Source: Symbiobacterium thermophilum (GTDB taxonomy: Bacteria > Bacillota > Sulfobacillia > DYFQ01). From it: a stretch of 64,000 nt of DNA. Both the position numbers and the translations under genes were made by a program. Positions 7,146 to 53,678 of this stretch are shown piece after piece; position 1 is the first letter of the stretch, and each line of letters starts with the position of its first letter. Under the pieces are notes generated by a model. The model did not search any database, was not told the origin of the DNA, and worked only from the letters and a program-made list of their open reading frames with translations. Location of the stretch: contig DYFQ01000004.1 in the NCBI GenBank assembly GCA_020725105.1, forward strand, positions 3,127-67,126. Direction: 5' to 3'.

Positions 7146-8546
7146 TCACGGACGACCTGGCGCAGGCGCTAGCGTGAGTTCCCGGGCGACGCGGTCCACG
7201 TCGCCGGCCCCCACCGTCAGCACCAGGTCGCCGGGGCGGACCTCCCGGCGCAGGAGCGTCACCACGTCGTCCAGGGCGGGAACGTGGCGCGCGGTACTCG
7301 GTGCCCGGGCGTTGATTTCCCGGGCCAGGTCGGCCGAACTGATGTCGCCCGGGTCCTCCTCGCGGGACGGATAGATGTCGGGCAGCACCACCAGGTCGGC
7401 GGCGGCCAGTTCCTCGGCAAACTTGTCCAGCAGGGCCTTGGTCCGGCTGAACAGGTGGGGCTGGAACACGCACCACAGCCGGTCCGGGTTGAACCGGCGG
7501 GCGGCTTCAAGAGTCACCCTGATGGCCGCCGGGTGGTGGGCGTAGTCGTCGTATACCGGCGCGCCGTTCACCGAGCCGACCAGTTCGAACCGGCGACGGA
7601 CGCCCCGGAACTCGCTCACCGCCTCCAGCGCCGCCGGCCCGGAGACACCCAGCCTGGAACAGGCGGCCAGCGCGGCGAGGGCGTTTGACACGTGGTGGCG
7701 GCCGGGGAGCGAAAGTCGGACCCGGCCAGCCTGGGCGCCGTCCACCTCCAGCGTGAACTCGGGGTAAGGGGCATGCTCCACGTAGCGGACGTCCCGCGCC
7801 CGCCAGCGGGCCCCCCCGGCGAGTCCGTAGGTGATGACCTCGGCCCGGACGTCGCCCGCGCCGATCACCTCCCGGACCCGGGGGTCGTCGGCGTTCGCCA
7901 CCAGCGCCCCTTCGGGTGGCACCAGGCAGGCGAACCGGTGGAACGCCCGGACCACGTTGTCCATGGAGTGGAAGTAGTCCAGGTGGTCGTCGTCGATGTT
8001 CAGGATGACGCCCAGGTAGGGTTTGAACCTGAGGAAGGTCTCCGAGTACTCGCAGGCCTCGGTGACCAGCACGTTGCCGCTGCCCAGCCTGACGTTGCCC
8101 CCCAGCGGCTCGACCTCGCCCCCGACGAGGGCGGTGGGGTCCAGCCCCGCCCGGACCAGGGCCAGGGCGATGAGGGCGGTGGTGGTGGTCTTGCCGTGGG
8201 TGCCGGCGACCGCCACGCCGAAACGGGCCTGTTCCATCAGGGTGCCGATCAGCTCGGCCCGGGTCATCACCGGGATCCCCGCGCGGCGGGCGGCGGCCAG
8301 TTCGGGGTTGCTCTCCTTGACGGCGGCGGTGTAGACCACGAGGTCGGCGCCGTTGACGTGCTCCGCGGCGTGGCCCCGGTAAAAGGCCAGCCCCTGGTCG
8401 ACCAGGCGGCGGACAAGGGGCGAGTCCTTCAGGTCCGACCCCGACACCCGGTAGCCGCGGGCCAGCAGGTAAGCGGCCAGGCCGCTCATGCTGATGCCGC
8501 CCACGCCCACGAAGTGCACGTGCTTTACCTTCGGGTGAAGGGTCAT
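7146..8546 (-). CDS. murC: UDP-N-acetylmuramate--L-alanine ligase
   Basis: Mur ligase motifs VHFVGVGGISMSGLA and GTHGKTTTT. Full-length similarity pattern to MurC. Confidence 0.9.
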   Translation of the reverse strand: MTLHPKVKHVHFVGVGGISMSGLAAYLLARGYRVSGSDLKDSPLVRRLVDQGLAFYRGHAAEHVNGADLVVYTAAVKESNPELAAARRAGIPVMTRAELIGTLMEQARFGVAVAGTHGKTTTTALIALALVRAGLDPTALVGGEVEPLGGNVRLGSGNVLVTEACEYSETFLRFKPYLGVILNIDDDHLDYFHSMDNVVRAFHRFACLVPPEGALVANADDPRVREVIGAGDVRAEVITYGLAGGARWRARDVRYVEHAPYPEFTLEVDGAQAGRVRLSLPGRHHVSNALAALAACSRLGVSGPAALEAVSEFRGVRRRFELVGSVNGAPVYDDYAHHPAAIRVTLEAARRFNPDRLWCVFQPHLFSRTKALLDKFAEELAAADLVVLPDIYPSREEDPGDISSADLAREINARAPSTARHVPALDDVVTLLRREVRPGDLVLTVGAGDVDRVARELTLAPAPGRP

Positions 8547-8849
8547 CGCCGCCCTTGACACCTCAGGCCTTCTTCTCATGCGGTATGCGCCCGGCCACGA
8601 CGCCGTGTACGGCGACCCGTTGACGGCATTCGACGCCGGGCAACGGGATCATTCGCCCTGGTTATCATATCACGCCTGGCTGGAAATCATCCCCTCCCCC
8701 TCCGGGGGCAGCCGTTACCCGGCCGGGCGGTAAAGCCCGTCTCCGCCTGGGCCGATATAGACGGCGGAGGCGTTTCGCGGGACGGTGCATCCCGGACCCG
8801 GCGAGCCGTGTATCCTAACGACGCCCCCAGTTCTGGAGGAGGGGTTGGC

Positions 8850-9227
8850 GTGAAGGCGGAGAACCTGCGGTTCGACCGGGAAGGCTGGGTGGAGTACTGG
8901 GACGCCTCGGGCCGGATCTACCGGTTCCCCCTGGACCGCATGGTGGAGATCATCGTCCGGTTCGGCGAGTACGCGGGCACCGCCAGGCAGCGGCGCGATC
9001 CCGGTGTGCCGGACGACTGCGACCTGCCCGCCGACCCCCACGCCGACAAGATCGGCGCCGACGACATCATCGACGGCCACTTCGCCTGTCAGAGTATCCA
9101 ATCGGTGAACGACTTCGTCGAACAGGTGCTGGAGGCCCGCCGGCTGAACAAGGGCCGGGGGGCGTCCCGGCCCTCAGGCGGTCCGCCGCGGCAGCAGCGT
9201 GGCCAGGAGGACCGGAACTTCTCGTAG
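8850..9227 (+). CDS. Hypothetical protein
   Basis: GTG start with GGAGGAGGGG RBS. The peptide is non-repetitive and protein-like (ENLRFDREGWVEYWDASGRIYRF...). No family recognised. Its 3' end overlaps the convergent HAD gene. Confidence 0.35.
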   Translation: MKAENLRFDREGWVEYWDASGRIYRFPLDRMVEIIVRFGEYAGTARQRRDPGVPDDCDLPADPHADKIGADDIIDGHFACQSIQSVNDFVEQVLEARRLNKGRGASRPSGGPPRQQRGQEDRNFS

Positions 9228-9890
9228 CGACCCGGCCTGCCGGTACAGGGGATGCGCCACGTTGACCGGGGCGTGGTCGTACTCCCACGTGTCCGCGGGA
9301 ACGTGCACCGCCCAGACGCCGTTGGCCAGGGCCGGCTGAACGTCGGAAGAGAGTGAGTTCCCCACCACCACCGTCAGGTGGGACGGCCGCCCGTCCAGGT
9401 GCTCCCGAAGGGTCGCCGGCGTCTTGCGGGACACGGTGTAGACGGCATCCACCAGCCGCGCCAGGCCTGACCGGACCACTTTGGCCCGCTGGACCTCGGG
9501 ATCGCCGGCCGTCCAGATGACCACCTCGAACCCTTCCTGACGGCACCAGCGCAGCAGCGGCTCCGCGCCGTCCAGCAGGCGCTGGGGCTGTTCGTAGGCC
9601 CAGTCGGCGTGGGCCCGTACCTGGCGGAGGACCCCGGGGTCGGGTTCCCGGCCCACCCGGTGGCAGAGTTCCCGGTAGCAGGCGGACCAGGCGGTGGGAA
9701 AGCTCTGGCGGGTCAAGCCCATGGTCCTGGCGATCTCCAGGTCGAGCCGGTTGCCCGTCTCCGCCACCACATGGGGCTCCAGCCCGAGTTCGCGGCTGAT
9801 GAGATCCACCATGGCCTCGATGGCCTGCCTGAAGAAGCCGATGTTCTCGGCCAGCGTGTCGTCCCAGTCGATGAACGCGTGAGCGCGCAC
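9174..9890 (-). CDS. HAD-superfamily hydrolase
   Basis: DxD motif FIDWDDTL sits at residues 7-13 when the GTG at 9890 is used (RBS GGGTGGGGGG). The longer tracked ORF has 140 aa of low-complexity leader that overlaps pheA. Confidence 0.6.
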   Translation of the reverse strand: MRAHAFIDWDDTLAENIGFFRQAIEAMVDLISRELGLEPHVVAETGNRLDLEIARTMGLTRQSFPTAWSACYRELCHRVGREPDPGVLRQVRAHADWAYEQPQRLLDGAEPLLRWCRQEGFEVVIWTAGDPEVQRAKVVRSGLARLVDAVYTVSRKTPATLREHLDGRPSHLTVVVGNSLSSDVQPALANGVWAVHVPADTWEYDHAPVNVAHPLYRQAGSLREVPVLLATLLPRRTA

Positions 9891-13017: not shown

Positions 13018-13875
13018 CTAGCTGGCCGAGACTTCCTGGAAGGCGGGAGGGAAGTAGTTCCCGCCGTGGACGGACCGGATCCCGGCAACGAGCTCGGAGC
13101 TTGCGGCCCGCTTGGGGATGAACCCCACCGCGCCGGCCTTCCTGGCGACGACCATGTTCTCTTCCTCGTCGTACTGGGTCAGGATCAGCACCCGGATGTC
13201 GGGATACTGCTGCACTATCCGCCTGGTCGCTTCCAGACCGTTCAGCCCCGGCATCAGTATGTCCATCAGCACCACGTGGGGCCTCAAGACGGGCACCTTC
13301 TCGATGGCGTCGCGGCCGTCAACGGCTTCTCCCACCACCTCCATGCCCCTCTGCAGCCTCACCACGGCGCAGATGCCGTCCCTGACAATGGCGTGGTCGT
13401 CCGCTATCAAGACCTTGATCGTGCGCGGGGCAGCCTCGAGTAGTTCCCGAATTCGTGGCACCAGTGAGGCGGGCTCCACGGGCTTGGTGACGTAGTCCTC
13501 GGCCTCGAGCTGCATGCCCTCCGACCGCGTCCATCCCCGGATGGAACGTTCCTCGGACCGGGCATCAACCACCACCAGGGGCACCTGACGCCACCTGGGG
13601 TGCCGCTTCACCCACTGGTGCAAGGAGAAAGCCTGTCCTGCCGGGGCGAGCGTGCCCAGCACCACCAGGTCTGGCTCCACGGCGGCCATCAGTTCCCGGG
13701 CCTGGGCACTGTCAGAGGCGGTGAAGACCCGGTACGACCTGGCCTCCAGGGTCCGGCAAAAGGCCTGCACAAAAGCGGGCTCGTCGTCGACGATCATGAT
13801 GCGGCCCCCACCCCCGGGACCGGCCGCCCGTGCCGGTCCGGAATGGAGCAGTCTCCCGCGCTCCGCGTCTGTCAT
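13018..13875 (-). CDS. Response regulator with two tandem receiver (REC) domains and no output domain
   Basis: REC1 (RIMIVDDEP...LVVLGT...) and REC2 (KVLIADDHAIVRDG...VVLMDILMPGLNGLEATRRI...LILTQYDEEENMVVARKAGAVGFIPK), then the ORF ends. M1 carries the strongest RBS (AAAGGAGGGA). An alternative start is 13797. Confidence 0.75.
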   Translation of the reverse strand: MTDAERGRLLHSGPARAAGPGGGGRIMIVDDEPAFVQAFCRTLEARSYRVFTASDSAQARELMAAVEPDLVVLGTLAPAGQAFSLHQWVKRHPRWRQVPLVVVDARSEERSIRGWTRSEGMQLEAEDYVTKPVEPASLVPRIRELLEAAPRTIKVLIADDHAIVRDGICAVVRLQRGMEVVGEAVDGRDAIEKVPVLRPHVVLMDILMPGLNGLEATRRIVQQYPDIRVLILTQYDEEENMVVARKAGAVGFIPKRAASSELVAGIRSVHGGNYFPPAFQEVSAS

Positions 13876-13949: not shown

Positions 13950-14861
13950 TCAGTGACGCAGTACCTCGAGCTCCGCTGCCTCCAGGATGTCAGGCACCGC
14001 CTTCTCGTTGCCAACGGCCATGATGTGGACACCGTGGCATAGACGCTCCTCCCGGATGGCCCTCACGAACCGGGCGGCGATCTCTATGCCCTTGTCGCGC
14101 CCCTTCCCTTTCCCCGCCGAGGTCAACTCCTCGATGATGGCCCCGGGAACGGTGATCCCGGGGACGTTGTCGTTCATGAACCTGGCCATCCTGACCGAGG
14201 TGAGGACGATGATGCCGGCCAGGACGTACACATCGAACTGCGAGGCATACTGCATGAACCGGCGAAGGCTGGCCAGGTCGAAGATCCCCTGGGTCTGAAA
14301 GAACCGGGCCCCTGCGGCCACCTTCTTCTCGAACTTGATGAGCTGGGGCTCAATGAAGTCCGCCTCGGGGTGCACGGTCGCTCCGGCAAAGAACCGCGGG
14401 GCGCCCCGCAACGGGTTTCCGGAGAGATCCTGGCCGGACTCCAAGGTCCCCACCAGCCGCAGGAGCTGGACCGAGTCAAGGTCAAATACCGGCTTGGCCT
14501 CCTTGTGGTCTCCCACGTCCACCGAGTCGCCGGTCAGGCAGAGAACGTTGGTGATCCCCCGGGAATAGGCCAGGAGGAGGTCTGCCTGCAGGGCCAGGCG
14601 GTTGCGGTCCCGGCAGGTCACCTGCAGGATGGGTTCACCCCCGCGCTCCTTCACCAGGAGGCAGCCTCCCAGCGAGGGGAAACGCATCACCGAGCTCTGG
14701 TTGTCGGTGACGTTGATCGCGTCCACTCTGGTCTTGAGCAGGTCGATGAGGTGAACCAGCTCCGAGGCGTCCGCGCCCTTGGGCGGGCCGACCTCCGCGG
14801 TCACCACGAACTCGCCGGAGTTCAGTTTCTCCTCAAGCAGGCTGTGGGCCATCTGTCTCAC
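13950..14861 (-). CDS. metF: Methylenetetrahydrofolate reductase, catalytic subunit
   Basis: Full-length MTHFR TIM barrel (FVVTAEVGPPKGAD, QVTCRDRNRLALQADLL, YVLAGIIVLTS). Confidence 0.9.
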   Translation of the reverse strand: MRQMAHSLLEEKLNSGEFVVTAEVGPPKGADASELVHLIDLLKTRVDAINVTDNQSSVMRFPSLGGCLLVKERGGEPILQVTCRDRNRLALQADLLLAYSRGITNVLCLTGDSVDVGDHKEAKPVFDLDSVQLLRLVGTLESGQDLSGNPLRGAPRFFAGATVHPEADFIEPQLIKFEKKVAAGARFFQTQGIFDLASLRRFMQYASQFDVYVLAGIIVLTSVRMARFMNDNVPGITVPGAIIEELTSAGKGKGRDKGIEIAARFVRAIREERLCHGVHIMAVGNEKAVPDILEAAELEVLRH

Positions 14862-15525
14862 CCGGGCCGCCGGCCCTGCTGGTGATCCTCCGCGGACGGG
14901 GAATCGTCCGGAAGTTCCTGGGCGGATAGTACCGGCGCATCTTCTCCAGCTGGTTCAGGGTTTCCAGCCGGCGGTAGATCAGCACCCAGCCGCAGTCCAT
15001 TTCCGGGCTGGCCTCGCACTTGCCGTTCTTGGTACCGGCGCACGGACCGTTGAGCATCCCCTTGGTGCAGCGGGTGATCGGACAGATGCCACCGGTATCG
15101 GCCAGCCGGCAGTCGCCGCAGGCGGCGCACCGCTCGTCCCAGACCCCCCACTCGTCCGCCATGCCCACGAAGGAGGTATTGACTCCGGGCAGCACCGGCA
15201 GGTCGGGGAAATGCTCGGCTATGGCCTGGACTCCCACGCCACAGCCAAGGGACAGCACGGCGTCCACCTCCGCGACCCTGTCCTTGAGCAGGTCCAAGAA
15301 CTCGAGGTCGCACTGCCGCTTCAGGGTGTGCTCGAGGAAGATCCGCGGCTCTCCCCCAGCCCGCGCCCGCGCCACCCTGAGGGCATGGTGCAGATAGGAG
15401 ACCTCGCGCTCGCCCCCGGCACCGCACACGGTCATGCAGGTGCCGCAGCCCACGATGAGGACCCTGGAGTAGGGGGCGAGCATCCTTGCCATCTCGTCCA
15501 GGGGCTTTTGCTCCGCGATGATCAA
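14833..15525 (-). CDS. metV: Methylene-THF reductase small subunit (MTHFR_C, Cys-rich)
   Basis: Cys motifs CGTCMTVCG and CAACGDC...CPITRCTKGMLNGPCAGTKNGKCE are characteristic of MetV in acetogens. Its ATG overlaps the stop of the upstream oxidoreductase (ATGA). Confidence 0.8.
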   Translation of the reverse strand: MIIAEQKPLDEMARMLAPYSRVLIVGCGTCMTVCGAGGEREVSYLHHALRVARARAGGEPRIFLEHTLKRQCDLEFLDLLKDRVAEVDAVLSLGCGVGVQAIAEHFPDLPVLPGVNTSFVGMADEWGVWDERCAACGDCRLADTGGICPITRCTKGMLNGPCAGTKNGKCEASPEMDCGWVLIYRRLETLNQLEKMRRYYPPRNFRTIPRPRRITSRAGGPGETDGPQPA

Positions 15526-17657
15526 CGGCCTGCCTCCCGCCTCATGACCTCGGCCAGGTAGAGCCCGCCGACCCGCTCCACGAACCGGTCAAGCTCGACG
15601 GCCAGGTTCTCCGCGCCGCCCGCCAGCACGAACGCCTGAAGCCGCCCGGGCTCCACTCCGACCTGGGCCAGAGTCTTGCGCACCCTTTCCACTCGCTGGC
15701 GAAGCCAGAGATCGGTGTTTTCGCGGGCGCACTGCTCGCCGCACCCGGCCACGAAGACTGCCTCGCCGCCGAGCTCGAAGGCCTTCAGAAGGTGCTCTGC
15801 CTCGACCTTGGCCGCACACAGCACCGGCACGATCCAGACTCCCGCCCTCGCCCGCCGCCAGACTCCCGCCAGCGAGTGGGTGCCAAACAGCCCGTACTGG
15901 CAGCAAAAGCCAAGGATCAGGGGCCTGACCTTGGCCTCCGCGGCGGCATTCAAAGCGTGTTCAAGCTCCTCGTCGACCTGGCGTCGATCGTGTGGCTTGC
16001 GCAGGGCAATGGCGCGGGCAGGGCACTCTCCGACGCAGACGCCGCAGGCCTGGCATTGCTCCGGCGGTATCCGCACGTTGCCAGCCTCGTCAAGCCGGGG
16101 AACGTGGTATGGGCAGACCCTGAGGCAGGTGAGGCAGGCGGCGCACTTATCCTGGAAGAGGATCTCGGCACCCATCCCGCAGCGCAGGCACCGCCTGGCC
16201 TCGCTGACCGCGGCCTCCCAGTCGTACACCGCCTCGACCGGCTCGAAGCCCTTGCGCCTCGCCTCGGGCGCCAGCACGGGGGGCTCCATCCGCCCCGTCC
16301 GCCTGATCACCTCGACCGTGCGGGGTTCCAGGTCGCCTTCCAGCCTGGGCCCCGGGTCGCGGGGCTTGGGGTAACGGTGCTGCAAGTAGTCGTCAATGCG
16401 GTGGGCGGCCAGCCTGCCCTGGGCGAGGGCCCGCACGGCGGTGGCGGGACCGCTCACGGCGTCTCCACCCGCGAACACGCCCGGCCGGTTGGTGGCGAGA
16501 GTGACCGGGTCGACCTGTATGGTACTGCCTCTGCCGGTGCGGAGGCGGAAGTCCTCGGGAACCTGGGGCACCTGGCCGATGGCCGTGATCAGGGTGTCAC
16601 AGGACAGGTGGGTCGTCGTGCTCTCATCGTAGGTGGGGCTGAACCTTCCGTCCGCATCGAACACGCTAACGCACCGTATGCACTGCACGCCGGTGACGTG
16701 GCTATCCCCGCTGATCGCCCCGGGGCCCCAGCCGCAGTTGAGCGCAACGCCTTCCTCCACGGCCGCCTCTACGTCCTCGGCGGACCCCGGCATCTCCTCC
16801 CGCTTTTCCAGGCACACGACGTGCACCTCTCGCGAGCCCAGCCGCAGCGCCGTGCGGGCTGCGTCCATGGCCACGTTTCCGCCGCCTATGACAACCACCC
16901 GGTCGCCCAGGGAGGGCTTGAGGCCGAGGTTCACCTCCCTGAGGAAGGTGATGGCGTCCACCACTCCGGGGAGGTCCTCCCCCGGAACCCCGAGGCGGCG
17001 GCTCTGCTGGGCTCCGACGGTGACGAAGATCGCCCGGTAACCTAGCTGGAACAGCAGGTCCAGCGAGACCACGCGGGTGTTGGTCCGGATCTCCACCCCC
17101 ATGCGGGTCAGTCGCTCGACCTCAGCGTCCAGCACCGCCCGCGGCAGCCGGTACTGGGGAACCCCGCCCCGGAGCATCCCCCCCACCTCCGGGTGGGCCT
17201 CGAAGATGGTGACGGGATACCCTAGCTTGCGGAGGTAGTAAGCGCAGGCCATGCCGGCCGGACCTGAGCCAACGATGGCTACCCGCTCACTGTGGATCGT
17301 CTCCGCCTCCGTTTGCACCAGCCTGTCCCCGCCGAACTCGACCGCGAACCGCTTGAGCGCCCGGATGGCCACCGCGTTGTCCACCTGGGCCCGCCTGCAC
17401 TGGTCCTCACAGGGATGGCTGCACACGTACGCGCAGATCGAGGGAAAGGGGTTGCCGCTCCTGATCACCCGCAGCGCCTCGAGGATCCGACCCTGGGCCA
17501 CCAGGTCAACATATTCCCTTATGTCCTGGTACAATGGGCAGGCCGCCTGGCAGGGCGGGACCAGGCTCCGGTCGGCGAGCTGCCCCGTACCGGCCCTGGG
17601 GACTGGTGGCGCCGGGCTTGCCGGCGTGAAGCGCACGGCCTGTTCTCCTGCTATCAT
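15522..17657 (-). CDS. Fusion oxidoreductase: GltD/NfnB-like NAD(P)H-binding FAD/FeS module + 2x[4Fe-4S] ferredoxin domain + C-terminal MvhD-like domain
   Basis: N-terminus has GltD/DPD-type FeS (CQAACPLYQDIREYV...ICAYVCSHPCEDQC), then two dinucleotide-binding folds (VAIVGSGPAGMACA; VVVIGGGNVAMDAA). The ferredoxin domain reads CLRCGMGAEILFQDKCAACLTCLRVCP...CQACGVCVGECP. The MvhD-like domain is LILGFCCQYG...VPVLCAAKVEAEHLLKAFELGGEAVFVAGCGEQC. ATG at 17657 overlaps the kinase stop in ATGA fashion, and the stop overlaps the metV start. Confidence 0.8.
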   Translation of the reverse strand: MIAGEQAVRFTPASPAPPVPRAGTGQLADRSLVPPCQAACPLYQDIREYVDLVAQGRILEALRVIRSGNPFPSICAYVCSHPCEDQCRRAQVDNAVAIRALKRFAVEFGGDRLVQTEAETIHSERVAIVGSGPAGMACAYYLRKLGYPVTIFEAHPEVGGMLRGGVPQYRLPRAVLDAEVERLTRMGVEIRTNTRVVSLDLLFQLGYRAIFVTVGAQQSRRLGVPGEDLPGVVDAITFLREVNLGLKPSLGDRVVVIGGGNVAMDAARTALRLGSREVHVVCLEKREEMPGSAEDVEAAVEEGVALNCGWGPGAISGDSHVTGVQCIRCVSVFDADGRFSPTYDESTTTHLSCDTLITAIGQVPQVPEDFRLRTGRGSTIQVDPVTLATNRPGVFAGGDAVSGPATAVRALAQGRLAAHRIDDYLQHRYPKPRDPGPRLEGDLEPRTVEVIRRTGRMEPPVLAPEARRKGFEPVEAVYDWEAAVSEARRCLRCGMGAEILFQDKCAACLTCLRVCPYHVPRLDEAGNVRIPPEQCQACGVCVGECPARAIALRKPHDRRQVDEELEHALNAAAEAKVRPLILGFCCQYGLFGTHSLAGVWRRARAGVWIVPVLCAAKVEAEHLLKAFELGGEAVFVAGCGEQCARENTDLWLRQRVERVRKTLAQVGVEPGRLQAFVLAGGAENLAVELDRFVERVGGLYLAEVMRREAGR

Positions 17658-19312
17658 CTCCGGTCGTCTCCACCTTCGCGTCCCGTCCCGCCCGGCAGCG
17701 GTACTGTCACAGTGATCCGGGTTCCGCGCCCTGGTTCCGACTCGACCTGACAAGTTCCCCCGACCAGCTTGGCCCGTTCCTTCATGGTGAAAAGCCCTGC
17801 GCCCCGGCCGCCTGGCTCCACCCGCGTCAGCCGGCCAACCTCAAACCCCCGGCCGTCGTCTTCCACCCGGAGCACGCACTCGTTCTCGTCGCACTCCAGC
17901 CGAATGGAGGCATGCCTGGCGCCGGAGTGCTCCAGGATGTTGCCGATCAGCCCCTGCGCCACGCGGAAAAAGGTCATCTCCACCTCGGAGGGGAGGCGCT
18001 TGTCCATGCCCTTGAACTCCGTGGTTACGGCAATCCCCCGGGACTGCAGCATGTCCTTGGCGTAGCGCTGGATGGCGGCCGGCAGCCCGAGCTCATCCAG
18101 CAGGGTCGGCCGGAGCGCCTTCATCAGCTTGACGATCTCATTTCCCATGTGCACCGCCTGGGAGTAGGTCTTGTCCAGCATCTCGACCAGCTCGGGGTCG
18201 TTCACGCCCGTCAGCCCGACCATCTCGATGATCGCCTTGAGGTTCAGGGTGAGGCTCGTCAGGGCCTGACTGGTCCCGTCGTGGAGCTCCCTGGCGATGC
18301 GCTTTCGCTCCTCCTCCTGGGCGCTCAGGGCGCGCTGCAACAGGGCCTGGTAGCGTTGCCGCGCTTCCGCCAGCCGCGCGTAGAGCCTGGCCTGCTCGAC
18401 GGCGGCCCCCAGGTAGTCGCCGATCGACTTGAGCAAGGAGACGTCGTCGGGACTGAAGCGACCGACCACAAGGCTGGCCACGTTCATCACGCCCACCACT
18501 TCGCCCCGGCTCCTCAGCGGTATGCTGGCGAAACCCTTGAGCCCCTCGGCGCTGACCAGGTCGGGCCGGACCGTTCGAGGATCGGTGGAAAGATCCTCAA
18601 GCAGCATGGCCTCACCGGTCGCCGCCACCCGGCCCGCTATTCCCTCTCCCAGGGGTATCCGCATCTCCCGTACGTACTTGGGCGACAGGCCGCGGTGCAC
18701 GCGGTAGTGGAGGGTGTCCGTCTCCCGATCCACGAGCAGGATGCCCCCGCTCGAGCCGTTCACCAGCTCCAGGACGTTGTCCAGGGCGATGGTCAGGATG
18801 GAATCCAGGTCGTGAATGCCGCTCACCGCGCTCGAGACGTGATTGAGGGCGAGCAGCCTATGGTGCTGGCGAAGAATCTGGGTCTCCAGCTGGCGCTCGG
18901 CCGTAACGTCTCGTCTGAGCTCGAGGACGGCCCTCACCTTGCCCTGGCGGTCGCGGACCGGATAGGCACTGATCTTGAGGTATGTCTCTGCCCACGGGAT
19001 GCGGGCCGGATGGATGACGGTGGTCATGCGCCCGGACCGGAGCACGCTGCGCAGGGGACAATCCCAGAGGGGGGCCCCGCACGGTCGGTCACGATCATAG
19101 AAGACCTGGTAGCAAAGCTTCCCGACCGGTGATTCAACGCCCCTTCGCAGCCTGCTGCTGGCAGCCCGGTTGGCAAAGCGGATCCGGAACTCGCCGTCGA
19201 TGACCAGGAGGTCATCTTCCATGCTGTCCGCGATGTCCTGGAGCGTGATGTCGAAACCCGCCTGGCCGGAGGACTCCTGGATGACTATGTCCCGCGTGCC
19301 CACGTCTACCAC
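17654..19312 (-). CDS. Sensor histidine kinase, PAS-GAF-HisKA_3-HATPase
   Basis: Cys-containing PAS (CYQVFYDRDRPCGAPLWDCPL), a GAF domain, an H-box ELHDGTSQ (HisKA_3 / NarX-DegS type) and an ATPase G-box (GRGAGLFTMKERAKLVGG). Start is GTG at 19312 or 19303. Confidence 0.8.
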   Translation of the reverse strand: MVDVGTRDIVIQESSGQAGFDITLQDIADSMEDDLLVIDGEFRIRFANRAASSRLRRGVESPVGKLCYQVFYDRDRPCGAPLWDCPLRSVLRSGRMTTVIHPARIPWAETYLKISAYPVRDRQGKVRAVLELRRDVTAERQLETQILRQHHRLLALNHVSSAVSGIHDLDSILTIALDNVLELVNGSSGGILLVDRETDTLHYRVHRGLSPKYVREMRIPLGEGIAGRVAATGEAMLLEDLSTDPRTVRPDLVSAEGLKGFASIPLRSRGEVVGVMNVASLVVGRFSPDDVSLLKSIGDYLGAAVEQARLYARLAEARQRYQALLQRALSAQEEERKRIARELHDGTSQALTSLTLNLKAIIEMVGLTGVNDPELVEMLDKTYSQAVHMGNEIVKLMKALRPTLLDELGLPAAIQRYAKDMLQSRGIAVTTEFKGMDKRLPSEVEMTFFRVAQGLIGNILEHSGARHASIRLECDENECVLRVEDDGRGFEVGRLTRVEPGGRGAGLFTMKERAKLVGGTCQVESEPGRGTRITVTVPLPGGTGREGGDDRR

Positions 19313-22889: not shown

Positions 22890-23040
22890 TGCCAGGTCCT
22901 CCCTTGCTTCGCGGCTCCGGTGCGGCCACCCGGTTGGGTTCGCCTGCCGGGAAACCGTTCCCTGCGCCCGTTGACACCCGGAGGCGGGAGCCATAGAATG
23001 GGCTCAAAGGTCAAACAAGGTCAAGAGGGAAGGGACCCGC

Positions 23041-24030
23041 ATGGTTCACCCCCCCGAGCAAGCGGACGGTCAGGCCGATCTGACCCTCGATACCCTCTCG
23101 CAAAGCATTTCCCGGGCGGCCGACCTGGTCGGCCCCTCGGTCGTCCAGATCACCACCTCGGGCCGTCTCCGCGGGTGGCGCGGCCGTGAGGGGCTGGGCT
23201 CGGGCATCCTGATGGACTCCGGCGGCCACGTGCTCACCAACGCCCACGTGGTGCAAGGCGCCGACGAACTGATGGTCACCCTGCCCGAGGGCCGGCGTTC
23301 CGGCGCGCGGGTCGTCGGCGCCGACGGCCTCTACGACCTGGCGCTGTTGAGCGTGCCCACGAGCCTGGCCAGACACCCCGCCCGGTTCGGCGAGTCCGAC
23401 CGGCTCAGGGTGGGCCAGGTGGTCATCGCCATCGGCAACCCTCACGGCCTGTCCTGGACCGTCACCATGGGGGTGGTGAGCGCGGTGGACCGCACCATCG
23501 CCACTCCGAACGGCGCGGCCCTGGACGGCCTCCTGCAGACGGACGCCGCCATCAACCCGGGCAACTCCGGCGGACCGCTGGCCACCCCCGACGGGCGCGT
23601 GGTGGGCGTCACCACGGCCATGCTCATGGGTGCCCAGGGGATCGGGTTTGCCATCCCCTCCGCCACCGCTCTGCGCGTCGCCGAGCAGCTGCTGGCCACC
23701 GGACGCGCCGTCCACCCGTGGCTGGGTGTCATCGGCACCCCCGAGATCATCGACGAGCGGTGGGTGAAGGCCTTTGACCTGCCGGCCAGCCGGGGGCTGG
23801 TGGTTACCGAGGTCATCCCGGGCAGCCCGGCGCACCGGGCGGGTATCCGGACCTTCGACATGATCGTCCGGCTGGGCGCCCGGCCCGTCAAGAGCCAGGG
23901 AGACATCCGCCAGGAACTGGCTTCCGCCGGGGTCGGGGCGCTGGTGGACACCGTCGTCCTGCGGGGGACCCGGCTGCTGAGCATCCCGGTCCGGGTGGAG
24001 GAATCGCCGCGGACGGCACGCCTGGCCTAG
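23041..24030 (+). CDS. htrA: HtrA/DegP-family serine protease with PDZ domain
   Basis: Trypsin-like triad context (TNAHVV, D, GNSGGPL) plus a C-terminal PDZ. AGAGGGAAGGGA RBS. Confidence 0.85.
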   Translation: MVHPPEQADGQADLTLDTLSQSISRAADLVGPSVVQITTSGRLRGWRGREGLGSGILMDSGGHVLTNAHVVQGADELMVTLPEGRRSGARVVGADGLYDLALLSVPTSLARHPARFGESDRLRVGQVVIAIGNPHGLSWTVTMGVVSAVDRTIATPNGAALDGLLQTDAAINPGNSGGPLATPDGRVVGVTTAMLMGAQGIGFAIPSATALRVAEQLLATGRAVHPWLGVIGTPEIIDERWVKAFDLPASRGLVVTEVIPGSPAHRAGIRTFDMIVRLGARPVKSQGDIRQELASAGVGALVDTVVLRGTRLLSIPVRVEESPRTARLA

Positions 24031-24099
24031 CCGGCGCGTTGGCGGAGGAAAAAACCCCCGGGCAAGCCGGACCCGCCGGGATACCACACTAGCTACGGA

Positions 24100-25137
24100 A
24101 TGCTTCGAGGGTGTTTCCGGATTGGGGGTTCTGACGTGGGCGACTTCGACTGGCGCCGGCGTCTGGAAGACCTGAGTGCCAGCTGGCGGCGGGTAGACTG
24201 GCGGAGCTTCTGGCGGCGCTGGGGCGTGTGGGTCGGGCTGGGCGGCGTGGTGCTCGTGCTGGCCGTGGCCCGGGGCCTGGACCGAGGTCCCGAGCAGCGA
24301 CCCATCGACCGGGTACGTCTGGGGCCGGAACCCCGGGTCACGGTGGAACTGGACGGCGGCAGCCGTACCCTGCCCATGGACGAGTACGTGGCCGGCGTGG
24401 TCGCCGGCGAGATGGACAACACCTGGCCGGTGGACGCCCTGGCGGCGCAGGCCATCGTGGCCAGGACCTTCGCCCTGCGGGAAATCCAGGACACCGGCGG
24501 CATCATCTCGGCTGACTTCGCGACGGCCCAGGCCTACAAGCCCGACCAGATCAACGACCGGGTGCGGGAGGCGGTCCGCAAGAGCCGTGGCGAGGTCATA
24601 ACCTACCGTGGCGAGTTGATCCGCGCCTTCTTTCACAGTTGCGCCGGCGGCAGGACGGCAACGGCCCAGGAAGGCCTGGGCTTCCGCAAGGAGGAGACAC
24701 CCTACCTTCAGGTGGTCACAGATGACGCCGACTGCACCGGCCGCTTCGGCCAGCGCAAGAACTGGCAGGCGACTTTTGAGAGTCAGGCCGTGCGCCGGGC
24801 CGTCCGACAGGTCACCGGCCGGGACCCCGGTCCCGTCCGGAGCTTCCGGATCGCCGGACGGGGACCTTCCGGCCGCGCCACCGTTTTCGCCGTCAACGGC
24901 GTCCAGGTGCCGGCGCCTGCCTTTCGCCTGGCCATCGGCTCCGAGACCATGCGCTCAACCCTGATCGACCGGATCGAGGTTGTTGGCGGCAGGGTCAGGC
25001 TGGCCGGGCGTGGCTTCGGACACGGTGTGGGGATGGCCCAGTTCGGCGCCCTCGCCCGGGTTCAGCAGGGGTGGTCCCCCGAGCGGGTGATCAGGTACTA
25101 CTTCCGGGACGTGGCCATTGAAAAGCGCTGGGAATGA
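24100..25137 (+). CDS. spoIID: SpoIID/LytB-domain protein (stage II sporulation protein D-like)
   Basis: SpoIID domain with FFHSCAGGRTA and GRGFGHGVGMAQFGA motifs. N-terminal TM segment. Start uncertain. Confidence 0.75.
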   Translation: MLRGCFRIGGSDVGDFDWRRRLEDLSASWRRVDWRSFWRRWGVWVGLGGVVLVLAVARGLDRGPEQRPIDRVRLGPEPRVTVELDGGSRTLPMDEYVAGVVAGEMDNTWPVDALAAQAIVARTFALREIQDTGGIISADFATAQAYKPDQINDRVREAVRKSRGEVITYRGELIRAFFHSCAGGRTATAQEGLGFRKEETPYLQVVTDDADCTGRFGQRKNWQATFESQAVRRAVRQVTGRDPGPVRSFRIAGRGPSGRATVFAVNGVQVPAPAFRLAIGSETMRSTLIDRIEVVGGRVRLAGRGFGHGVGMAQFGALARVQQGWSPERVIRYYFRDVAIEKRWE

Positions 25138-25918: not shown

Positions 25919-26632
25919 ATGCAAGCAGCTGACCTTGACCTGCTGGTCATGAAGGCCAAGGGTGGTGACGGCACCAGCCGGGAACTGGTGCTGGAGCGCT
26001 GCCGCCCGTTCATCGTCAGGGTGGCAAGCCGCCAGGCCAAGCGCTTCCTCGACTGGGAGAACGACGACGAGTTGAGCGTCGCCCTGGTGGCCCTCAACGA
26101 AGCCATCGACGCCTACCAGCCCCAGACCGGCGCGGGGTTTCTGGGCTTCGCCCAGGTGGTCATCACCCGCCGGCTGGTGGACTACTTCCGCCGCCAGGGA
26201 AGGCACATGGCGGAGACCCTGGACGGCGGCGGCTGGACCGAGGACGGCAGCCTGGTCCGCCTGGCCCGGCTGGAACAGGCCCGGCGGGAAGAGGAGGCGG
26301 CGCGCGCCGAGGAACTGCAGGAACTGAAGGCGGTGCTCAGCACGTTTGGCATCAGCCTGCGCGAACTGGCCCGGGTGGCGCCGCGCCGCGTGGACGCCCG
26401 CCAAGGCCTGGCGCAGGCCGCCCGGGTGCTGGCCAGCGACCCAGTTCTCGTCCAGCAGCTCTACTTCACCCGGCAACTGCCCCTGGCCGCGCTGGCCGGC
26501 CGGGTCCGGGTGTCGCGCAAGACCCTGGAACGGGGCCGCAAGTACCTGATCGCCCTCGCCATCGTCCTGGACCGGGGCCTGGACCACCTGATCGAGTACC
26601 TCAAACCGCTGTTTCGGGAGGGCCGGGCATGA
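25919..26632 (+). CDS. sigI: RNA polymerase sigma factor SigI
   Basis: 237 aa. The region-2 and region-4 pattern is typical of SigI (LLVMKAKGGDGTSRELVLERCRPFIV, FLGFAQVVITRRLVDYFR). An ATGA overlap leads to a downstream RsgI_N-domain gene. Confidence 0.8.
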   Translation: MQAADLDLLVMKAKGGDGTSRELVLERCRPFIVRVASRQAKRFLDWENDDELSVALVALNEAIDAYQPQTGAGFLGFAQVVITRRLVDYFRRQGRHMAETLDGGGWTEDGSLVRLARLEQARREEEAARAEELQELKAVLSTFGISLRELARVAPRRVDARQGLAQAARVLASDPVLVQQLYFTRQLPLAALAGRVRVSRKTLERGRKYLIALAIVLDRGLDHLIEYLKPLFREGRA

Positions 26633-27747
26633 GGCGCGGTATCGTGGTGGACATGGATGGCCGCCGGATCACGGTGGTGACCCCGTCCGGCCAGGTGGAG
26701 AACCTGCCAAGCCACCGCTGGCAGCACCCGCCCCGGTTGGGGCAGGAGATACTGCTCCCCGAACGCCCGGGACTCCGGGCGACCGTCGCCGCGGGCCTGA
26801 GCCGCCTGGGCCAACTGCCGGGGCGAGGCCGCCCGGCCCGGCGGCCACGCTTCCGGCTGCCGGCCCTGGTCCTGCCCAGGCCTGCCGTGTCGCTGCCCGC
26901 GCCGCGCCACATTCTTGGCTGGCTCGCGCAACGCCGGGCGCCCGCGGTCCTGGCGTCCGTCCTGGCCGCCACCGCCGTGGTGGCCGTCGGACTGACCCTG
27001 CCGGCCGTGTGGAACCCTCCCGTGGCCACCGTGGGCCTGGAAATCAACCCCCGGCTGGAACTGGCCGTCACGGCCGATGCCCGCGTGGCGGCGGTCCGCG
27101 CCCTGGACCCGGCCGGCTCGGCCGTACGGGACCTGGCCCGGTCCCGAACGCCGGCCTGGCCGCGGGGCTGGTGGGACTGGCGGAGCCGGCCTGAACTGGC
27201 CTCGGCCGTGACAGACCTGGTGACCGCCGCCCGCGACCTGGGCTATCTCTCCGATGGGGGGGCGGTGGTGGCGGCCGTGGTACCCCTGCGGGCGGCCGTC
27301 GACCCTGGCCTGATGTGGGAAGCCGTCCAGGAGGCCGTCACCCGGCTCGTGGCCACCGAGACCGGGACGATCCTCGTCGCCGTCCGCGCCACTCCCGAGA
27401 CCCTGGGCGCCGCCCGCGAGGCCGGCATGTCAATAGGTCTGTACCTGATGAGCCGGGCAGCCGAGATCGCCGGGGCTCCCCGGCCGGCGGAGCCCGGGGC
27501 CGGCCTGGGCCGGTGGGTCGGCGCTATCGGCGGGCCGAAGCGGGCGGCCGTCCTCCAGGCGGCGCTGGAGCAGGTGACCGAGGTGGTCGTGGTGGAGGTG
27601 CGGTCCACGGGCCGCGACGTCGACTCACAGCCCTCATCGGTCACCGGCGCCGACACCGACACCCCGGCTCCCCCTCCCGCCGAGCGGGAGCCCCGGCGCC
27701 GGCCCCGCGAGCCGCAGCCCGGACGCGGGCCGGTACCCCAGCCCTGA
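26629..27747 (+). CDS. rsgI: Anti-sigma-I factor RsgI-like protein
   Basis: RsgI_N domain (MRRGIVVDMDGRRITVVTPSGQVENLP), a single TM helix (VLASVLAATAVVAVGLTLPAV), then an Ala/Arg/Pro-rich extracytoplasmic region with no recognisable CBM. Confidence 0.7.
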   Translation: MRRGIVVDMDGRRITVVTPSGQVENLPSHRWQHPPRLGQEILLPERPGLRATVAAGLSRLGQLPGRGRPARRPRFRLPALVLPRPAVSLPAPRHILGWLAQRRAPAVLASVLAATAVVAVGLTLPAVWNPPVATVGLEINPRLELAVTADARVAAVRALDPAGSAVRDLARSRTPAWPRGWWDWRSRPELASAVTDLVTAARDLGYLSDGGAVVAAVVPLRAAVDPGLMWEAVQEAVTRLVATETGTILVAVRATPETLGAAREAGMSIGLYLMSRAAEIAGAPRPAEPGAGLGRWVGAIGGPKRAAVLQAALEQVTEVVVVEVRSTGRDVDSQPSSVTGADTDTPAPPPAEREPRRRPREPQPGRGPVPQP

Positions 27748-30804: not shown

Positions 30805-31263
30805 CTAGCTACGCCACTCGCGTTCCTCGCGGCCGCCCGGGGCGGCAAAGGTGGGCCCACCATACGTCGGGTAAGGCTCGGGCGCGCCCACGTGGCGCCC
30901 CTGGTCACGACCGTACTGGGGCCCGACCCCCGGCATGGCGCCGGGGATCATGCCTGCCGGCGCCTGGGCGTAGGGCTCGGCCCGGACGGTGCCCCGGTAA
31001 TCGTGAACGAACTTGGACACCTTGTGCTGGTCGGCGGCGGACACCTCGTACCAGCCCTTGTGGTGCAGGTACTCGAAGAGTTCGTAGTGCCGCTCCAGGT
31101 GGTCGTTCATGAGCGCCATGAAGCTGTTCCGGACTGGCCGGTTGGCCGCCTCGACGGTGCCCGTGTGATAGAAGGACGACAGGAACTTGCACGCGTCCAG
31201 GCACGCGAAGGCGATGGTCCGGTCGTCCAGCCGGTGGGCATGGGGTTGCGGGTGAACGCTCAC
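30805..31263 (-). CDS. Spore coat protein F-domain (CotF-like) protein
   Basis: Coat_F-like helical region (LDDRTIAFACLDACKFLSSFYHTGTVEAANRPVRNSFMALMNDHLERHYELFEYLHHKGWY). GTG start with GGAGAAAGGAGG RBS. Confidence 0.65.
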   Translation of the reverse strand: MSVHPQPHAHRLDDRTIAFACLDACKFLSSFYHTGTVEAANRPVRNSFMALMNDHLERHYELFEYLHHKGWYEVSAADQHKVSKFVHDYRGTVRAEPYAQAPAGMIPGAMPGVGPQYGRDQGRHVGAPEPYPTYGGPTFAAPGGREEREWRS

Positions 31264-31306
31264 GCGCTGCCTCCTTTCTCCGCTTCTGCGTCGCCATGGC
31301 ACAGGT

Positions 31307-31803: not shown

Positions 31804-32682
31804 CTAGGCGAAGTCCTTCAGGATCCTGGCCCAGTCCTGCTCGGGGAAGCTGAGGTCGAACTGGCGAGCCAGCGGTTCTTTGGCCAGCCCGGGCAGTTCC
31901 GCCTCGAAACTGGGCCGCTCCTCCTGGTAGATGAGACCTCGCACCAGACCCTCGTGCTGGAGAACCACGCGGATGGCGCCCGTCCGGTCGTGCGGGTCAT
32001 ACTCCGGTTCGTCGTCCAGGTTCACGCAGTTCTCCCGCCAGAAGTCGTAGGTGTCCTCCCGGTTGAAGGTGACGCAAGGGCTCAAGACGTTCAGATAGGC
32101 AAACCCCCGGTGCTTGATGGCCATTTCCACCAGCCTGGTCAACTGCTTCACGTCACCGGAGAAGCCCTGGGCCACAAAGCTCGCCCCCGCCGCCAGGGCC
32201 GTCTCCAGCGGCCGGACCGGGTATTCGGCCGTGCCGTAGGGGGAGGTCTTGGTCTTCATCCCCTTCCGGGACGTCGGCGAAGCCTGGCCGGTGGTCAGGC
32301 CGTAGATGTGGTTGTCCATCACCATGTAGACCAGGTCGATGTTGCGCCGGACGGTGTGCAGGAAGTGGGACAGGCCGATCCCGTATCCGTCACCGTCGCC
32401 GCCGAAGACGACGACCGTCAGATCACGGTTGGCCAGCTTGATGCCGGTGGCCACCGGGATCGCGCGGCCGTGGACCGAGTGGAACCCGTAGGCCCCGAAG
32501 TACGAGGGCGCCTTGGAGGAGCAGCCGATGCCGCCAACCACCACCACCTGGTCCGGGCTCAGCCCCAGCCCGGCGCAGGCCCGCTGCAGGGCCGCCAGGG
32601 CCGGGAAGTCGCCGCAACCCGGACACCAGGTGGACGGCTCCACGATGGACTGCTTGTAATCCATCACCGTTACCCGGGCCAC
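31804..32682 (-). CDS. korB: 2-oxoacid:ferredoxin oxidoreductase beta subunit (TPP-binding)
   Basis: CPGCGDF...GIGCS TPP/FeS motifs and a GDG Mg-TPP site. Directly abuts korA. Confidence 0.9.
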   Translation of the reverse strand: MARVTVMDYKQSIVEPSTWCPGCGDFPALAALQRACAGLGLSPDQVVVVGGIGCSSKAPSYFGAYGFHSVHGRAIPVATGIKLANRDLTVVVFGGDGDGYGIGLSHFLHTVRRNIDLVYMVMDNHIYGLTTGQASPTSRKGMKTKTSPYGTAEYPVRPLETALAAGASFVAQGFSGDVKQLTRLVEMAIKHRGFAYLNVLSPCVTFNREDTYDFWRENCVNLDDEPEYDPHDRTGAIRVVLQHEGLVRGLIYQEERPSFEAELPGLAKEPLARQFDLSFPEQDWARILKDFA

Positions 32683-46335: not shown

Positions 46336-47079
46336 ATGGCAGCCGGCAAGGCGGCCGGGGGGCGGAGGCGCGTAGTTGAGCGAGCCGACTTCTACAAAGG
46401 TTTGATCCAGCTGGCGGTGGCGTACTACCAGTACTACGTCCGGCGCAGGCGGACGGGCGCCGGCCGGCTCTTTGCCCGGGTCAGGCGGCTGTTGGCCCCG
46501 TTCGCTCCGGAGCACCGGGGGGTGGACGTCCGCCGACTCCTGCACGACGTGGAGGTCTGCATCGACGCCGTGGCCGCGGGCGAGGACCCGCCAAAGCTGA
46601 CCCTGCGGGGGCCGGGCATCGACCCCGTCGTCGAGGGCCTGAAGCACCGGAGCAAGCGTGCCGGGTATCCCGAGCATCCCCGGCCGTCGGTCCACGCCGC
46701 CATCGTCCGCGACAACCACGCGCTGCTGGTCCTCCGCAAGGGCGAGCCCTTCGCCGGGCGGTGGGGGCTCCCCGGGGGTGCCCTTGAACTGGGCGAGACC
46801 CTGGAAACGGCCTTGACCCGGGAGGTCCGCGAGGAGACCGGCCTGGAGGTCCGCCCGGTCCGGGTGATCGACGTGCGGGACGCCATTCACCGGGACCCCG
46901 ACGGTCGGATCCGCTTTCACTACCTGGTGCTGTTCATGACGGCGGTGCCCACCGGCGGCCGGCTGCGGGCCGCCGACGATGCCGGCGAAGCCCGCTGGGT
47001 GAGCCCGGAGGAACTGCGCCAGCTACCCCTGGTGCCGGGAGTGACAGCCATCCTGGCCCGGGCCGGTTTTCCCGCCTGA
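46336..47079 (+). CDS. DUF309-NUDIX fusion protein
   Basis: N-terminal DUF309-like helices (FYKGLIQLAVAYYQ). C-terminal Nudix box (GRWGLPGGALELGETLETALTREVREETGL). Confidence 0.7.
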   Translation: MAAGKAAGGRRRVVERADFYKGLIQLAVAYYQYYVRRRRTGAGRLFARVRRLLAPFAPEHRGVDVRRLLHDVEVCIDAVAAGEDPPKLTLRGPGIDPVVEGLKHRSKRAGYPEHPRPSVHAAIVRDNHALLVLRKGEPFAGRWGLPGGALELGETLETALTREVREETGLEVRPVRVIDVRDAIHRDPDGRIRFHYLVLFMTAVPTGGRLRAADDAGEARWVSPEELRQLPLVPGVTAILARAGFPA

Positions 47080-47949: not shown

Positions 47950-48217
47950 AGACCCGCCTCCTCGTGACTGCCGCCGCTTCGACGTGGTCTTCCATGCTCA
48001 GTATATCTTGGACGCCCCTCCTCCATCTGGTGCCGGCCCCCGGCCGGGACTCAGGGCCCGTCCGGCCTCCTGGAGCGGTTCGGCCGTCCGGCCCGGCCCG
48101 GTACCGGTACACCCGGGCCATGGCGGAGGCGCGTCCGGAACGCGCTATATTTGGTTGGAAGCAGGTAGTTCTCGGGTCTTTTTCATTCCACACTCCGCTC
48201 CAGGAGATGGGCAGACG

Positions 48218-49131: not shown

Positions 49132-49134
49132 CCC

Positions 49135-50364: not shown

Positions 50365-50381
50365 GGGGGCTGGGGGACACA

Positions 50382-52653: not shown

Positions 52654-52673
52654 CGCCCCGCTCCCCTCCCGCC

Positions 52674-53651: not shown

Positions 53652-53678
53652 GCTGGACCTCCTTCGCTCCCCTGCCCG

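Follow-up and report, generated by a model that had tools for sequence, protein, structure and literature searches.

How a MetVF-type methylene-tetrahydrofolate reductase (MTHFR) obtains its electrons from NAD(P)H is the question raised by a gene on the minus strand of a 64,000-nucleotide stretch of DNA (the window; contig DYFQ01000004.1 of assembly GCA_020725105.1, positions 3,127 to 67,126; G+C content 70%). The gene directly precedes metV and metF and encodes one polypeptide, here called the fusion, with a GltD-like flavoprotein core, a 2×[4Fe-4S] ferredoxin domain and an MvhD/FlpD domain. Electron supply and energy conservation at the reduction of methylene-tetrahydrofolate (methylene-THF) constitute the least settled step of the Wood–Ljungdahl pathway. 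MetVF-type reductases cannot oxidise NAD(P)H alone, and the known additions are RnfC2 in type III and HdrCBA–MvhD in type IV (PMC8760232); the need of MetVF for an NAD(P)H-binding extra subunit is also described in PMC9430772. With a probability of roughly 0.55, the fusion feeds electrons into a MetVF-type MTHFR of three proteins, as its input subunit and as a linear, non-bifurcating wire.

The gene was placed within a minus-strand open frame at 15522–17753. A first-pass annotation, made from the letters of the window, had described it as a single polypeptide joining a GltD-like core to ferredoxin and MvhD domains, and the reading frame exists at exactly the coordinates given there; it lies on the minus strand, the annotation having named no strand (Table 1). 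An alternative GTG start at 17636, seven codons later, corresponds to the NCBI gene call (P0001, 704 residues, 100% identical). The G+C content at third codon positions (0.85) is similar to that of the neighbouring genes. A plus-strand reading of the same interval was rejected on account of its many stops, and the long plus-strand open reading frames (ORFs) across the gene are the usual shadows of high-GC DNA. In databases the fusion is named either 'FAD-dependent oxidoreductase' or 'formate dehydrogenase beta subunit'.

Domains were assigned with Pfam and NCBIfam profiles and by matches to the sequences of solved structures in the PDB. The Fer4_20 match, to the iron–sulfur (FeS) domain of the GltD and dihydropyrimidine dehydrogenase (DPD) type, scored 63.2 bits against a cut-off of 25.8, covered profile positions 30–106 of 113 and contains C36, C40, C75, C79, C83, C87 and K102. 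It is followed by the two Rossmann folds, in which the FAD motif G130-S-G-P-A-G and the NAD(P)H motif G258-G-G-N-V-A-x-D are both invariant. The ferredoxin dicluster was recognized by Fer4_10 above its cut-off (E = 2.5e-6, 27.7 bits); the 2×[4Fe-4S] domain of the first-pass annotation is therefore present, although not as an insert, being a separate domain between the GltD core and MvhD. The FlpD match scored 65.6 bits against a cut-off of 22.3 and covered profile positions 1–120 of 123. The same C-terminal domain aligned with the solved MvhD chains 5odc_D, 8rvu_F and 9sfi_K with E values of 1e-11 to 1e-13 (2.4e-13 for 5odc_D) and with its cysteines in register, so its likeness to MvhD held when checked. 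The 'CC...C...CGEQC' signature reported for it was located at C585-C586, C614 and C639-GEQ-C643; the profile match and four [2Fe-2S]-site cysteines place it among MvhD/FlpD domains.

One part of the GltD-type FeS domain lies out of its usual place. Its first helix and CxxC motif are N-terminal in NfnB, NfnL and GltD; in the fusion the flavin domains precede the same segment, which includes EARRCLRC with R-C490-L-R-C493, and StnC, NfnA and PRK12771 proteins share this order. Residues 462–494 aligned with residues 11–42 of Thermotoga maritima NfnB (4ylf_B), also matched residues 12–46 of Pyrococcus furiosus NfnL and were colinear in StnC and NfnA. By alignment, the displacement reads as a permutation-like rearrangement of the Fer4_20 domain, and it assigns the GltD core of the fusion to the StnC/NfnA/PRK12771 branch.

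Comparison with solved structures led to the same relatives. The top matches were the GltD-like parts of the Bfu-type transhydrogenases 9bov_A, 9n5u_A and 8oh5_C (326–360 bits, E values of 1e-96 to 1e-106), followed by NfnB/NfnL, GltD and DPD. An AlphaFold2 model made from only 50 close orthologues (65–77% identity) was unusable (pLDDT 58.8, pTM 0.35). When fusions of 33–46% identity were included in the alignment, a compact and confident model was obtained (pLDDT 90.8, pTM 0.89), and its fold was then compared using Foldseek. NfnA/StnC came out on top (TMq 0.64), NfnL/NfnB and GltD matched with TMt values of 0.77–0.80 and root-mean-square deviations (r.m.s.d.s) of 2.2–2.9 Å, and DPD was also matched. 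The single-polypeptide architecture is thus confirmed by Pfam, NCBIfam, PDB and Foldseek matches alike. With a Fer4_20 domain carrying ligands for two [4Fe-4S] clusters, two Rossmann folds and a GltD fold, the fusion has the features of a GltD/NfnB/DPD-type oxidoreductase. The best NCBIfam model, PRK12771 ('NAD(P)-binding protein'), matched residues 31–553 with 498.3 bits, just below its cut-off of 516; PRK12771 is by this score the nearest named subfamily, of which the fusion is not a formal member.

An HdrA identity was also considered for the N-terminal part and ruled out in favour of the GltD/NfnL fold. The HdrA2 and HdrA profiles matched within residues 481–697 only, with 130 bits (cut-off 1100) and 67 bits (cut-off 1300), over the C-terminal ferredoxin and MvhD domains; positions 575–769 of HdrA2 (NF040770) correspond to residues 501–697 (130 bits). 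There was no HdrA among the top 50 Foldseek matches of the model.

Conservation of ligands and motifs was counted over 194 orthologues. 19 of the 21 cluster cysteines were scored as invariant and the others were present in at least 97% of the sequences. The GltD-type clusters have eight cysteines, six of which (C75, C79, C83, C87, C490 and C493) are invariant; C36 (191 of 194) and C40 (192 of 194) are absent only from a few N-terminally short sequences. Seven of the ferredoxin-domain cysteines (C505/508/511/515 and C535/538/541/545) are invariant and C535 is found in 193 of 194. In the MvhD domain C586, C614, C639 and C643 are invariant and C585 occurs in 188 of 194; these four, plus C585, are predicted to bind a [2Fe-2S] cluster. 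The predicted cofactor set of the fusion is one FAD, four [4Fe-4S] clusters and one [2Fe-2S] cluster. K102 is likewise invariant and aligns with the cluster-ligating lysine of StnC (K170) and of Thermococcus sibiricus NfnA (K165), a position that is Glu in the bifurcating NfnB/NfnL. C75 is an invariant extra cysteine that is missing from StnC/NfnA and present in T. maritima NfnB.

The fusion belongs to a tightly packed cassette. The kinase stop overlaps the fusion ATG (ATGA, 17654–17657), the TTG start of metV overlaps the TGA stop of the fusion, and metF overlaps metV by 20 nucleotides. Exact-sequence look-ups of P0001 and of a metF product begun at a GTG gave nothing; the metF product of the ATG version is on record as an exact copy in three metagenome contigs. 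Relatives were searched for in one genome per GTDB species, yielding at least 530 relatives of the fusion, and synteny was scored over those loci that reach far enough. metV starts 0–9 nucleotides past the fusion in all 76 related loci with downstream sequence, and metF adjoins metV in all 67 that extend so far. A PAS-GAF-HisKA_3 kinase lies upstream in every locus with enough upstream flank except one (L063), and the gene for the REC-REC protein is the last of the conserved cassette, downstream of metF in the related loci. Two-component genes thus bracket the MTHFR genes in nearly every relative (L002–L086). The linkage of the fusion to metV and metF spans metagenome-assembled genomes (MAGs) of Chloroflexota, Actinomycetota and Thermodesulfobacteriota.

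The next fusions outside this clade, which forms one cluster at 50% clustering, share only 35–46% identity with it. Three of them (40–46% identity) were sampled for gene neighbourhood and two adjoin metV; the distant fusions linked to metV and metF have 46% and 41% identity. One is followed by metV and then a probable metF. Another (P0127) lies downstream of metV and metF, and its cluster also encodes CdhD, a pterin-binding methyltransferase and two-component proteins; P0126 (40% identity) has no metVF beside it. The role of an electron-input subunit for MetVF, already suggested by the first-pass annotation, is strongly backed by these gene orders: it is argued for by the overlapping start and stop codons at the kinase/fusion, fusion/metV and metV/metF junctions, by the conserved synteny and by the inability of MetVF to use NAD(P)H by itself.

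Table 1. Positions of the fusion, its domains, the cassette genes and other features of the window.
Feature	Positions	Strand	Size or residues	Basis
Fusion gene	15522–17657	−	711 aa; ATG at 17657, stop 15522–15524	ORF translation
Fer4_20 (GltD/DPD-type FeS domain)	17337–17558	−	residues 34–107	Pfam, E 2e-17
Pyr_redox_2 (FAD and NAD(P)H Rossmann folds)	16416–17285	−	residues 125–414	Pfam, E 5.5e-32, 111.8 bits
Beta-2 motif of the NAD(P) fold, C282-L-E-K-R	~16800–16814	−	residues 282–286	
Displaced GltD FeS segment (helix and R-C490-L-R-C493)	16176–16274	−	residues 462–494	alignment
2×[4Fe-4S] ferredoxin domain	16008–16154	−	residues 502–550	Pfam Fer4_10, Fer4_7, Fer4_9
MvhD/FlpD domain	15567–15917	−	residues 581–697	Pfam FlpD, E 5e-18
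metV	14833–15525	−	230 aa	Pfam DUF5981 (MTHFR C-terminal), E 4e-35
metF	13950–14852	−	300 aa; ATG at 14852	Pfam MTHFR, E 1e-35
Sensor histidine kinase (PAS-GAF-HisKA_3-HATPase)	17654–19312	−		Pfam
REC-REC protein, no output domain	13018–13875	−		Pfam Response_reg ×2, E 3e-42
MurC	7146–8579	−		
541-aa ORF	23011–24636	−	541 aa	
HtrA-like trypsin-PDZ gene	23041–24030	+		
SpoIID	24100–25137	+		
RsgI-like gene	26629–27747	+		
Coat F	30805–31302	−		
2-oxoacid oxidation genes	31804–34437 (−), 47984–51302 (+), 51400–55022 (−), 47023–47949 (−)			

The data above show the domains, the conservation of ligands, the fold, the structure of the operon and the synteny; from them we infer complex formation, electron donor, direction, order of clusters and lack of bifurcation as follows. 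NAD(P)H would bind to the second Rossmann fold, the nucleotide probably being NADH for the enzyme of the window and NADPH for most relatives, and a hydride would pass to FAD. Single electrons would then leave the FAD through a proximal [4Fe-4S] cluster ligated by three cysteines and K102, and continue through the distal [4Fe-4S] cluster to the pair of [4Fe-4S] clusters in the ferredoxin domain and on to the [2Fe-2S] cluster of MvhD. The arrangement in series is suggested by the start of the ferredoxin domain 10 residues past C493 and by the match of the ferredoxin and MvhD domains to the C-terminus of HdrA2. MvhD would dock on MetV, the clusters of which would reduce the flavin of MetF, and MetF would convert 5,10-methylene-THF to 5-methyl-THF. 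The fusion would thereby fill the place of RnfC2 in the type III enzyme of Acetobacterium woodii, with parts reminiscent of the GltD and MvhD segments in the type IV HdrA from Moorella, and the layout of the wire would be like that of DPD. In DPD, four [4Fe-4S] clusters in a row link an N-terminal GltD-type FeS/FAD/NADPH module with a second flavin site.

The choice of nucleotide was read from the beta-2 motif of the NAD(P)-binding fold, which is YRR[S/T] in 162 of the 194 orthologues and CLE[S/K]R in the remaining 32, the fusion of the window among them. Positions 308 and 329 covary with the motif, and the YRR form also occurs in the NADPH-binding NfnB, StnC and NfnA. In general, Rossmann folds contact the 2'-phosphate through Arg pairs and the ribose hydroxyls through an acidic residue. 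By this rule the CLEKR motif suggests that the enzyme of the window may prefer NADH, and the YRR motif that most relatives may prefer NADPH; the dimorphism is a possible NADPH/NADH switch.

The likeliest alternative is that the enzyme is a minimal electron-bifurcating MTHFR in which an NfnB-like FAD splits the electron pair of NAD(P)H. One electron would take the downhill branch by way of MvhD, MetV and MetF to methylene-THF (E0' about −200 mV), and the other would go uphill through [4Fe-4S] clusters to ferredoxin, with confurcation as the reverse during methyl-THF oxidation. The GltD core does share its fold with the bifurcating NfnL/NfnB, as given by the Foldseek values above; it keeps C75 as in T. 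maritima NfnB and unlike StnC/NfnA, its two kinds of cluster, [4Fe-4S] and [2Fe-2S], could feed two branches, and MvhD is typical of bifurcating Hdr-type complexes. Coupling of MTHFR to ferredoxin has also long been proposed for the Wood–Ljungdahl pathway (PMC8760232, PMC8515935). The Arg of the QYRLP motif, which in the bifurcating NfnB/NfnL contacts the flavin N5 atom through a hydrogen bond and stabilises the anionic semiquinone, is conserved in the fusion and was counted in favour of bifurcation; as a test it was dropped, since the non-bifurcating StnC keeps the same residue at about 6 Å from N5.

A linear wire is preferred because the nearest solved relatives are GltD modules whose FAD is non-bifurcating and feeds a chain of [4Fe-4S] clusters, as described for NfnABC and StnABC (PMC10482914, PMC12018979), because the invariant K102 takes the FAD-proximal position as in StnC/NfnA where NfnB/NfnL have Glu, and because no NfnA-like second partner is encoded nearby. 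The ferredoxin and MvhD domains follow the GltD clusters in series by sequence topology, which leaves one exit from the FAD, and the decayed MvhD cysteines of several distant MetVF-linked fusions (P0127) fit poorly with a high-potential branch that is essential. The ORFs scanned in the window and the cassettes of relatives included no NfnA-, HdrBC- or RnfC-like genes and no CCG-domain proteins; nor was an NfnA/NfnS partner (PyrK-like, with [2Fe-2S] and FAD) found there. Nothing specific supports the possible flavin-based bifurcation site proposed by the first-pass annotation, and bifurcation, which we consider unlikely, is the less likely reading beside the linear wire. If true, it would provide hosts such as subsurface Dehalococcoidia with an energy-conserving MTHFR step and would settle the long-standing question whether this step can be coupled to ferredoxin at all. 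That the fusion represents the smallest flavin-based bifurcating Wood–Ljungdahl system yet found, with one FAD in 711 residues driving electrons from NAD(P)H to both methylene-THF and ferredoxin, is a shade more doubtful again.

Several points weigh against the linear wire itself. C75 might replace K102 as a cluster ligand, and the conserved N5-contacting Arg is uninformative either way, being present in the non-bifurcating StnC. The complex of the fusion with MetVF is deduced from gene order alone, and a solved MetV or MetVF structure that would show how MvhD docks was looked for and none was found. Sequence topology and homology, and not distances, underlie the proposed order of the clusters, and the assignment of NADH or NADPH follows solely from the general beta-2 rule.

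That the enzyme mainly runs in reverse, as a methyl-THF dehydrogenase in which the electrons of MetF and MetV reach NAD(P)+ by way of MvhD and then the cluster chain, appears improbable. Such an enzyme would belong to an oxidative Wood–Ljungdahl or methyl-group-oxidising metabolism; the proposal concerns direction and overlaps with the linear wire. The type III enzyme does run backwards when its product is pulled away (PMC8760232), many hosts of relatives are sediment Dehalococcoidia, one distant homologue lies in a CdhD/AcsE cluster, and the dedicated two-component system suggests a conditional, catabolic use. Methyl-THF oxidation by NAD(P)+ is endergonic, however (−200 versus −320 mV), and genes for carbon monoxide dehydrogenase/acetyl-CoA synthase (CODH/ACS) and methyltransferases were found neither in the window nor in the sequence directly flanking those close relatives that were sampled.

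It is equally improbable that the fusion is a free-standing oxidoreductase between NAD(P)H and ferredoxin or another carrier, merely co-expressed with a MetVF that uses the reduced soluble carrier: type II MetVF does take reduced ferredoxin in vitro and P0126 stands apart from metVF, but transfer from NAD(P)H to ferredoxin is uphill unless bifurcating, and a physical partnership is favoured by the covalent MvhD adaptor and by a translational coupling to metV that holds strictly in different phyla (76 of 76 loci).

The closest known system with a MetV–MetF core next to an MvhD module is the type IV MTHFR (HdrCBA–MvhD–MetVF) of Moorella thermoacetica and Sporomusa ovata, and long HdrA–GltD(–MvhD) proteins occur among the relatives of the fusion. 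In the M. thermoacetica type IV HdrA the NAD(P)H site is the GltD domain and the same protein carries an MvhD-like domain (PMC9430772). From this composition, the fusion corresponds to the GltD, ferredoxin and MvhD parts of an Hdr-type system minus the HdrA flavin domains and HdrBC, for which 'streamlined', the word of the first-pass annotation, is apt. Unlike type IV, it has no HdrA thioredoxin-reductase-like flavin domain and no HdrB/HdrC (CCG) subunit, its GltD, ferredoxin and MvhD domains form one 711-residue chain, and its genes are ordered fusion–metV–metF with a flanking two-component system. HdrL of Desulfobacterium autotrophicum, an HdrA/glutamate-synthase fusion, likewise has a GltD-type NAD(P)H module co-located with MvhD (PMC2702500); HdrL differs in keeping the HdrA domains, in a separate MvhD gene and in having dsr or fdh neighbours instead of metVF.

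StnC (S. ovata, 8oh5_C) and NfnA (T. sibiricus, 9n5u_A; C. saccharolyticus, 9bov_A) share with the fusion the displaced RCLxC segment, the Lys at the FAD-proximal cluster and [4Fe-4S] clusters after the GltD core. They extend into NuoG/FdhF-like domains and supply a separate, HydBC-like FMN module that bifurcates, whereas the fusion ends in a bacterial-type 2×[4Fe-4S] domain and MvhD, is linked to MetVF and has the extra C75 and, in part of the family, the CLE motif. NfnB/NfnL of NfnAB/NfnSL (4ylf_B, 5jca_L) have the same fold with two [4Fe-4S] clusters, FAD and an NAD(P)H site (36% identity); the fusion differs by Lys for Glu, the permuted N-terminal segment and the added ferredoxin and MvhD domains. 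DPD (1h7w and related structures) carries its acceptor flavin domain on the same chain and lacks MvhD, and the fold match extends over the GltD part only.

A. woodii's type III MTHFR, RnfC2–MetV–MetF, is non-bifurcating (PMC8760232). Like the prediction for the fusion, it has one extra FeS flavoprotein subunit, encoded beside metVF, that supplies an NAD(P)H site wired to MetV. RnfC2 is unrelated, being an RnfC-like FMN protein with a MetV-like N-terminus, whereas the fusion has a GltD-type FAD core and an MvhD adaptor; an RnfC-like domain was not found in the cassette. Published schemes comprise MTHFR types I–IV and a proposed NuoEFG 'X' type (PMC8760232, PMC8515935), and an arrangement with no HdrA thioredoxin-reductase domain, HdrBC, RnfC or NfnA falls outside all of these. 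No description of GltD, ferredoxin and MvhD combined with MetVF was found in the open-access literature, so its absence there is not proof of novelty. All of the parts are known and combinations of GltD with MvhD have precedents in HdrL and the Moorella HdrA; the single-chain, MetVF-linked form is unmatched. The cassette is thus an additional MTHFR arrangement that is compact, very common (at least 530 relatives) and travels across phyla in company with a dedicated two-component system. Having only three genes, with a single flavoprotein as input subunit, it is simple enough for reconstitution, which would test MvhD–MetV docking, NADH/NADPH specificity and bifurcation by a GltD-type flavin.

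The best 80 of the at least 530 relatives were mostly from MAGs of Dehalococcoidia/Dehalococcoidales and also included Thermoleophilia, Thermodesulfobacteriota and Anaerolineae; the hosts of the relatives as a whole are mostly Dehalococcoidia of sediments and aquifers. According to PMC5736913, metV occurs in no Chloroflexi clade except its marine subphylum I lineage. A Dehalococcoidia host was considered for the window and dropped, as its MurC and sporulation genes indicate Bacillota: MurC has 58–59% identity to proteins of Bacillota MAGs, then Clostridia, and genes for SpoIID, Coat F and an RsgI-like protein are present. By these genes the host is probably a high-GC Bacillota lineage. With such a host and with mainly Chloroflexota relatives, the cassette has evidently been passed between phyla together with its regulators.

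Some features vary among the related loci. In most relatives (L084–L086, ~9150–9810) the kinase and the fusion are separated by a NarL-type regulator (REC-GerE, 217 residues), which is split into two genes in L084; it is absent from the window and from the locus of the 74%-identical P0003 from the same metagenome. Neighbourhoods beyond the cassette genes differ, and the cassette is therefore self-contained. In L090, the locus of the distant MetVF-linked P0127, REC, REC and kinase genes adjoin metV. The MvhD cysteines are absent from several distant GltD–ferredoxin–MvhD fusions (P0127, P0157 and P0136); P0127 (L090, 8001–10091) has lost them and still adjoins metV and metF in its CdhD/AcsE cluster. 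In such lineages MvhD may act purely as a scaffold for docking.

In a Dehalococcoidia locus (L085, 1625–5891), the DNA just upstream of the cassette encodes a molybdopterin oxidoreductase together with a Fer4_11 protein and another GltD-like protein; the last of these is shorter (532 residues) and has no MvhD, which points to the reuse of GltD-type input modules with other partners in one genome. Some 8 kb downstream from the cassette, the closest sampled relative (L091, 15541–17526) carries genes for a Cas12f1-like TnpB and an IS200/IS605-type Y1 transposase, which fits a mobile neighbourhood.

Among the ORFs scanned elsewhere in the window there were no Wood–Ljungdahl genes (CODH/ACS, FolD or Fhs). 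The 541-residue ORF that overlaps an HtrA-like trypsin-PDZ gene on the opposite strand had no family match and is, like the ORFs opposite the fusion, a spurious antisense ORF of the sort usual at 70% GC. The window also contains two separate 2-oxoacid:ferredoxin oxidoreductase sets, a lipoate-dependent 2-oxoacid dehydrogenase complex (E1 alpha, E1 beta and E2) and lipoyl synthase; with both kinds of gene present, ferredoxin-linked and NAD-linked 2-oxoacid oxidation coexist.

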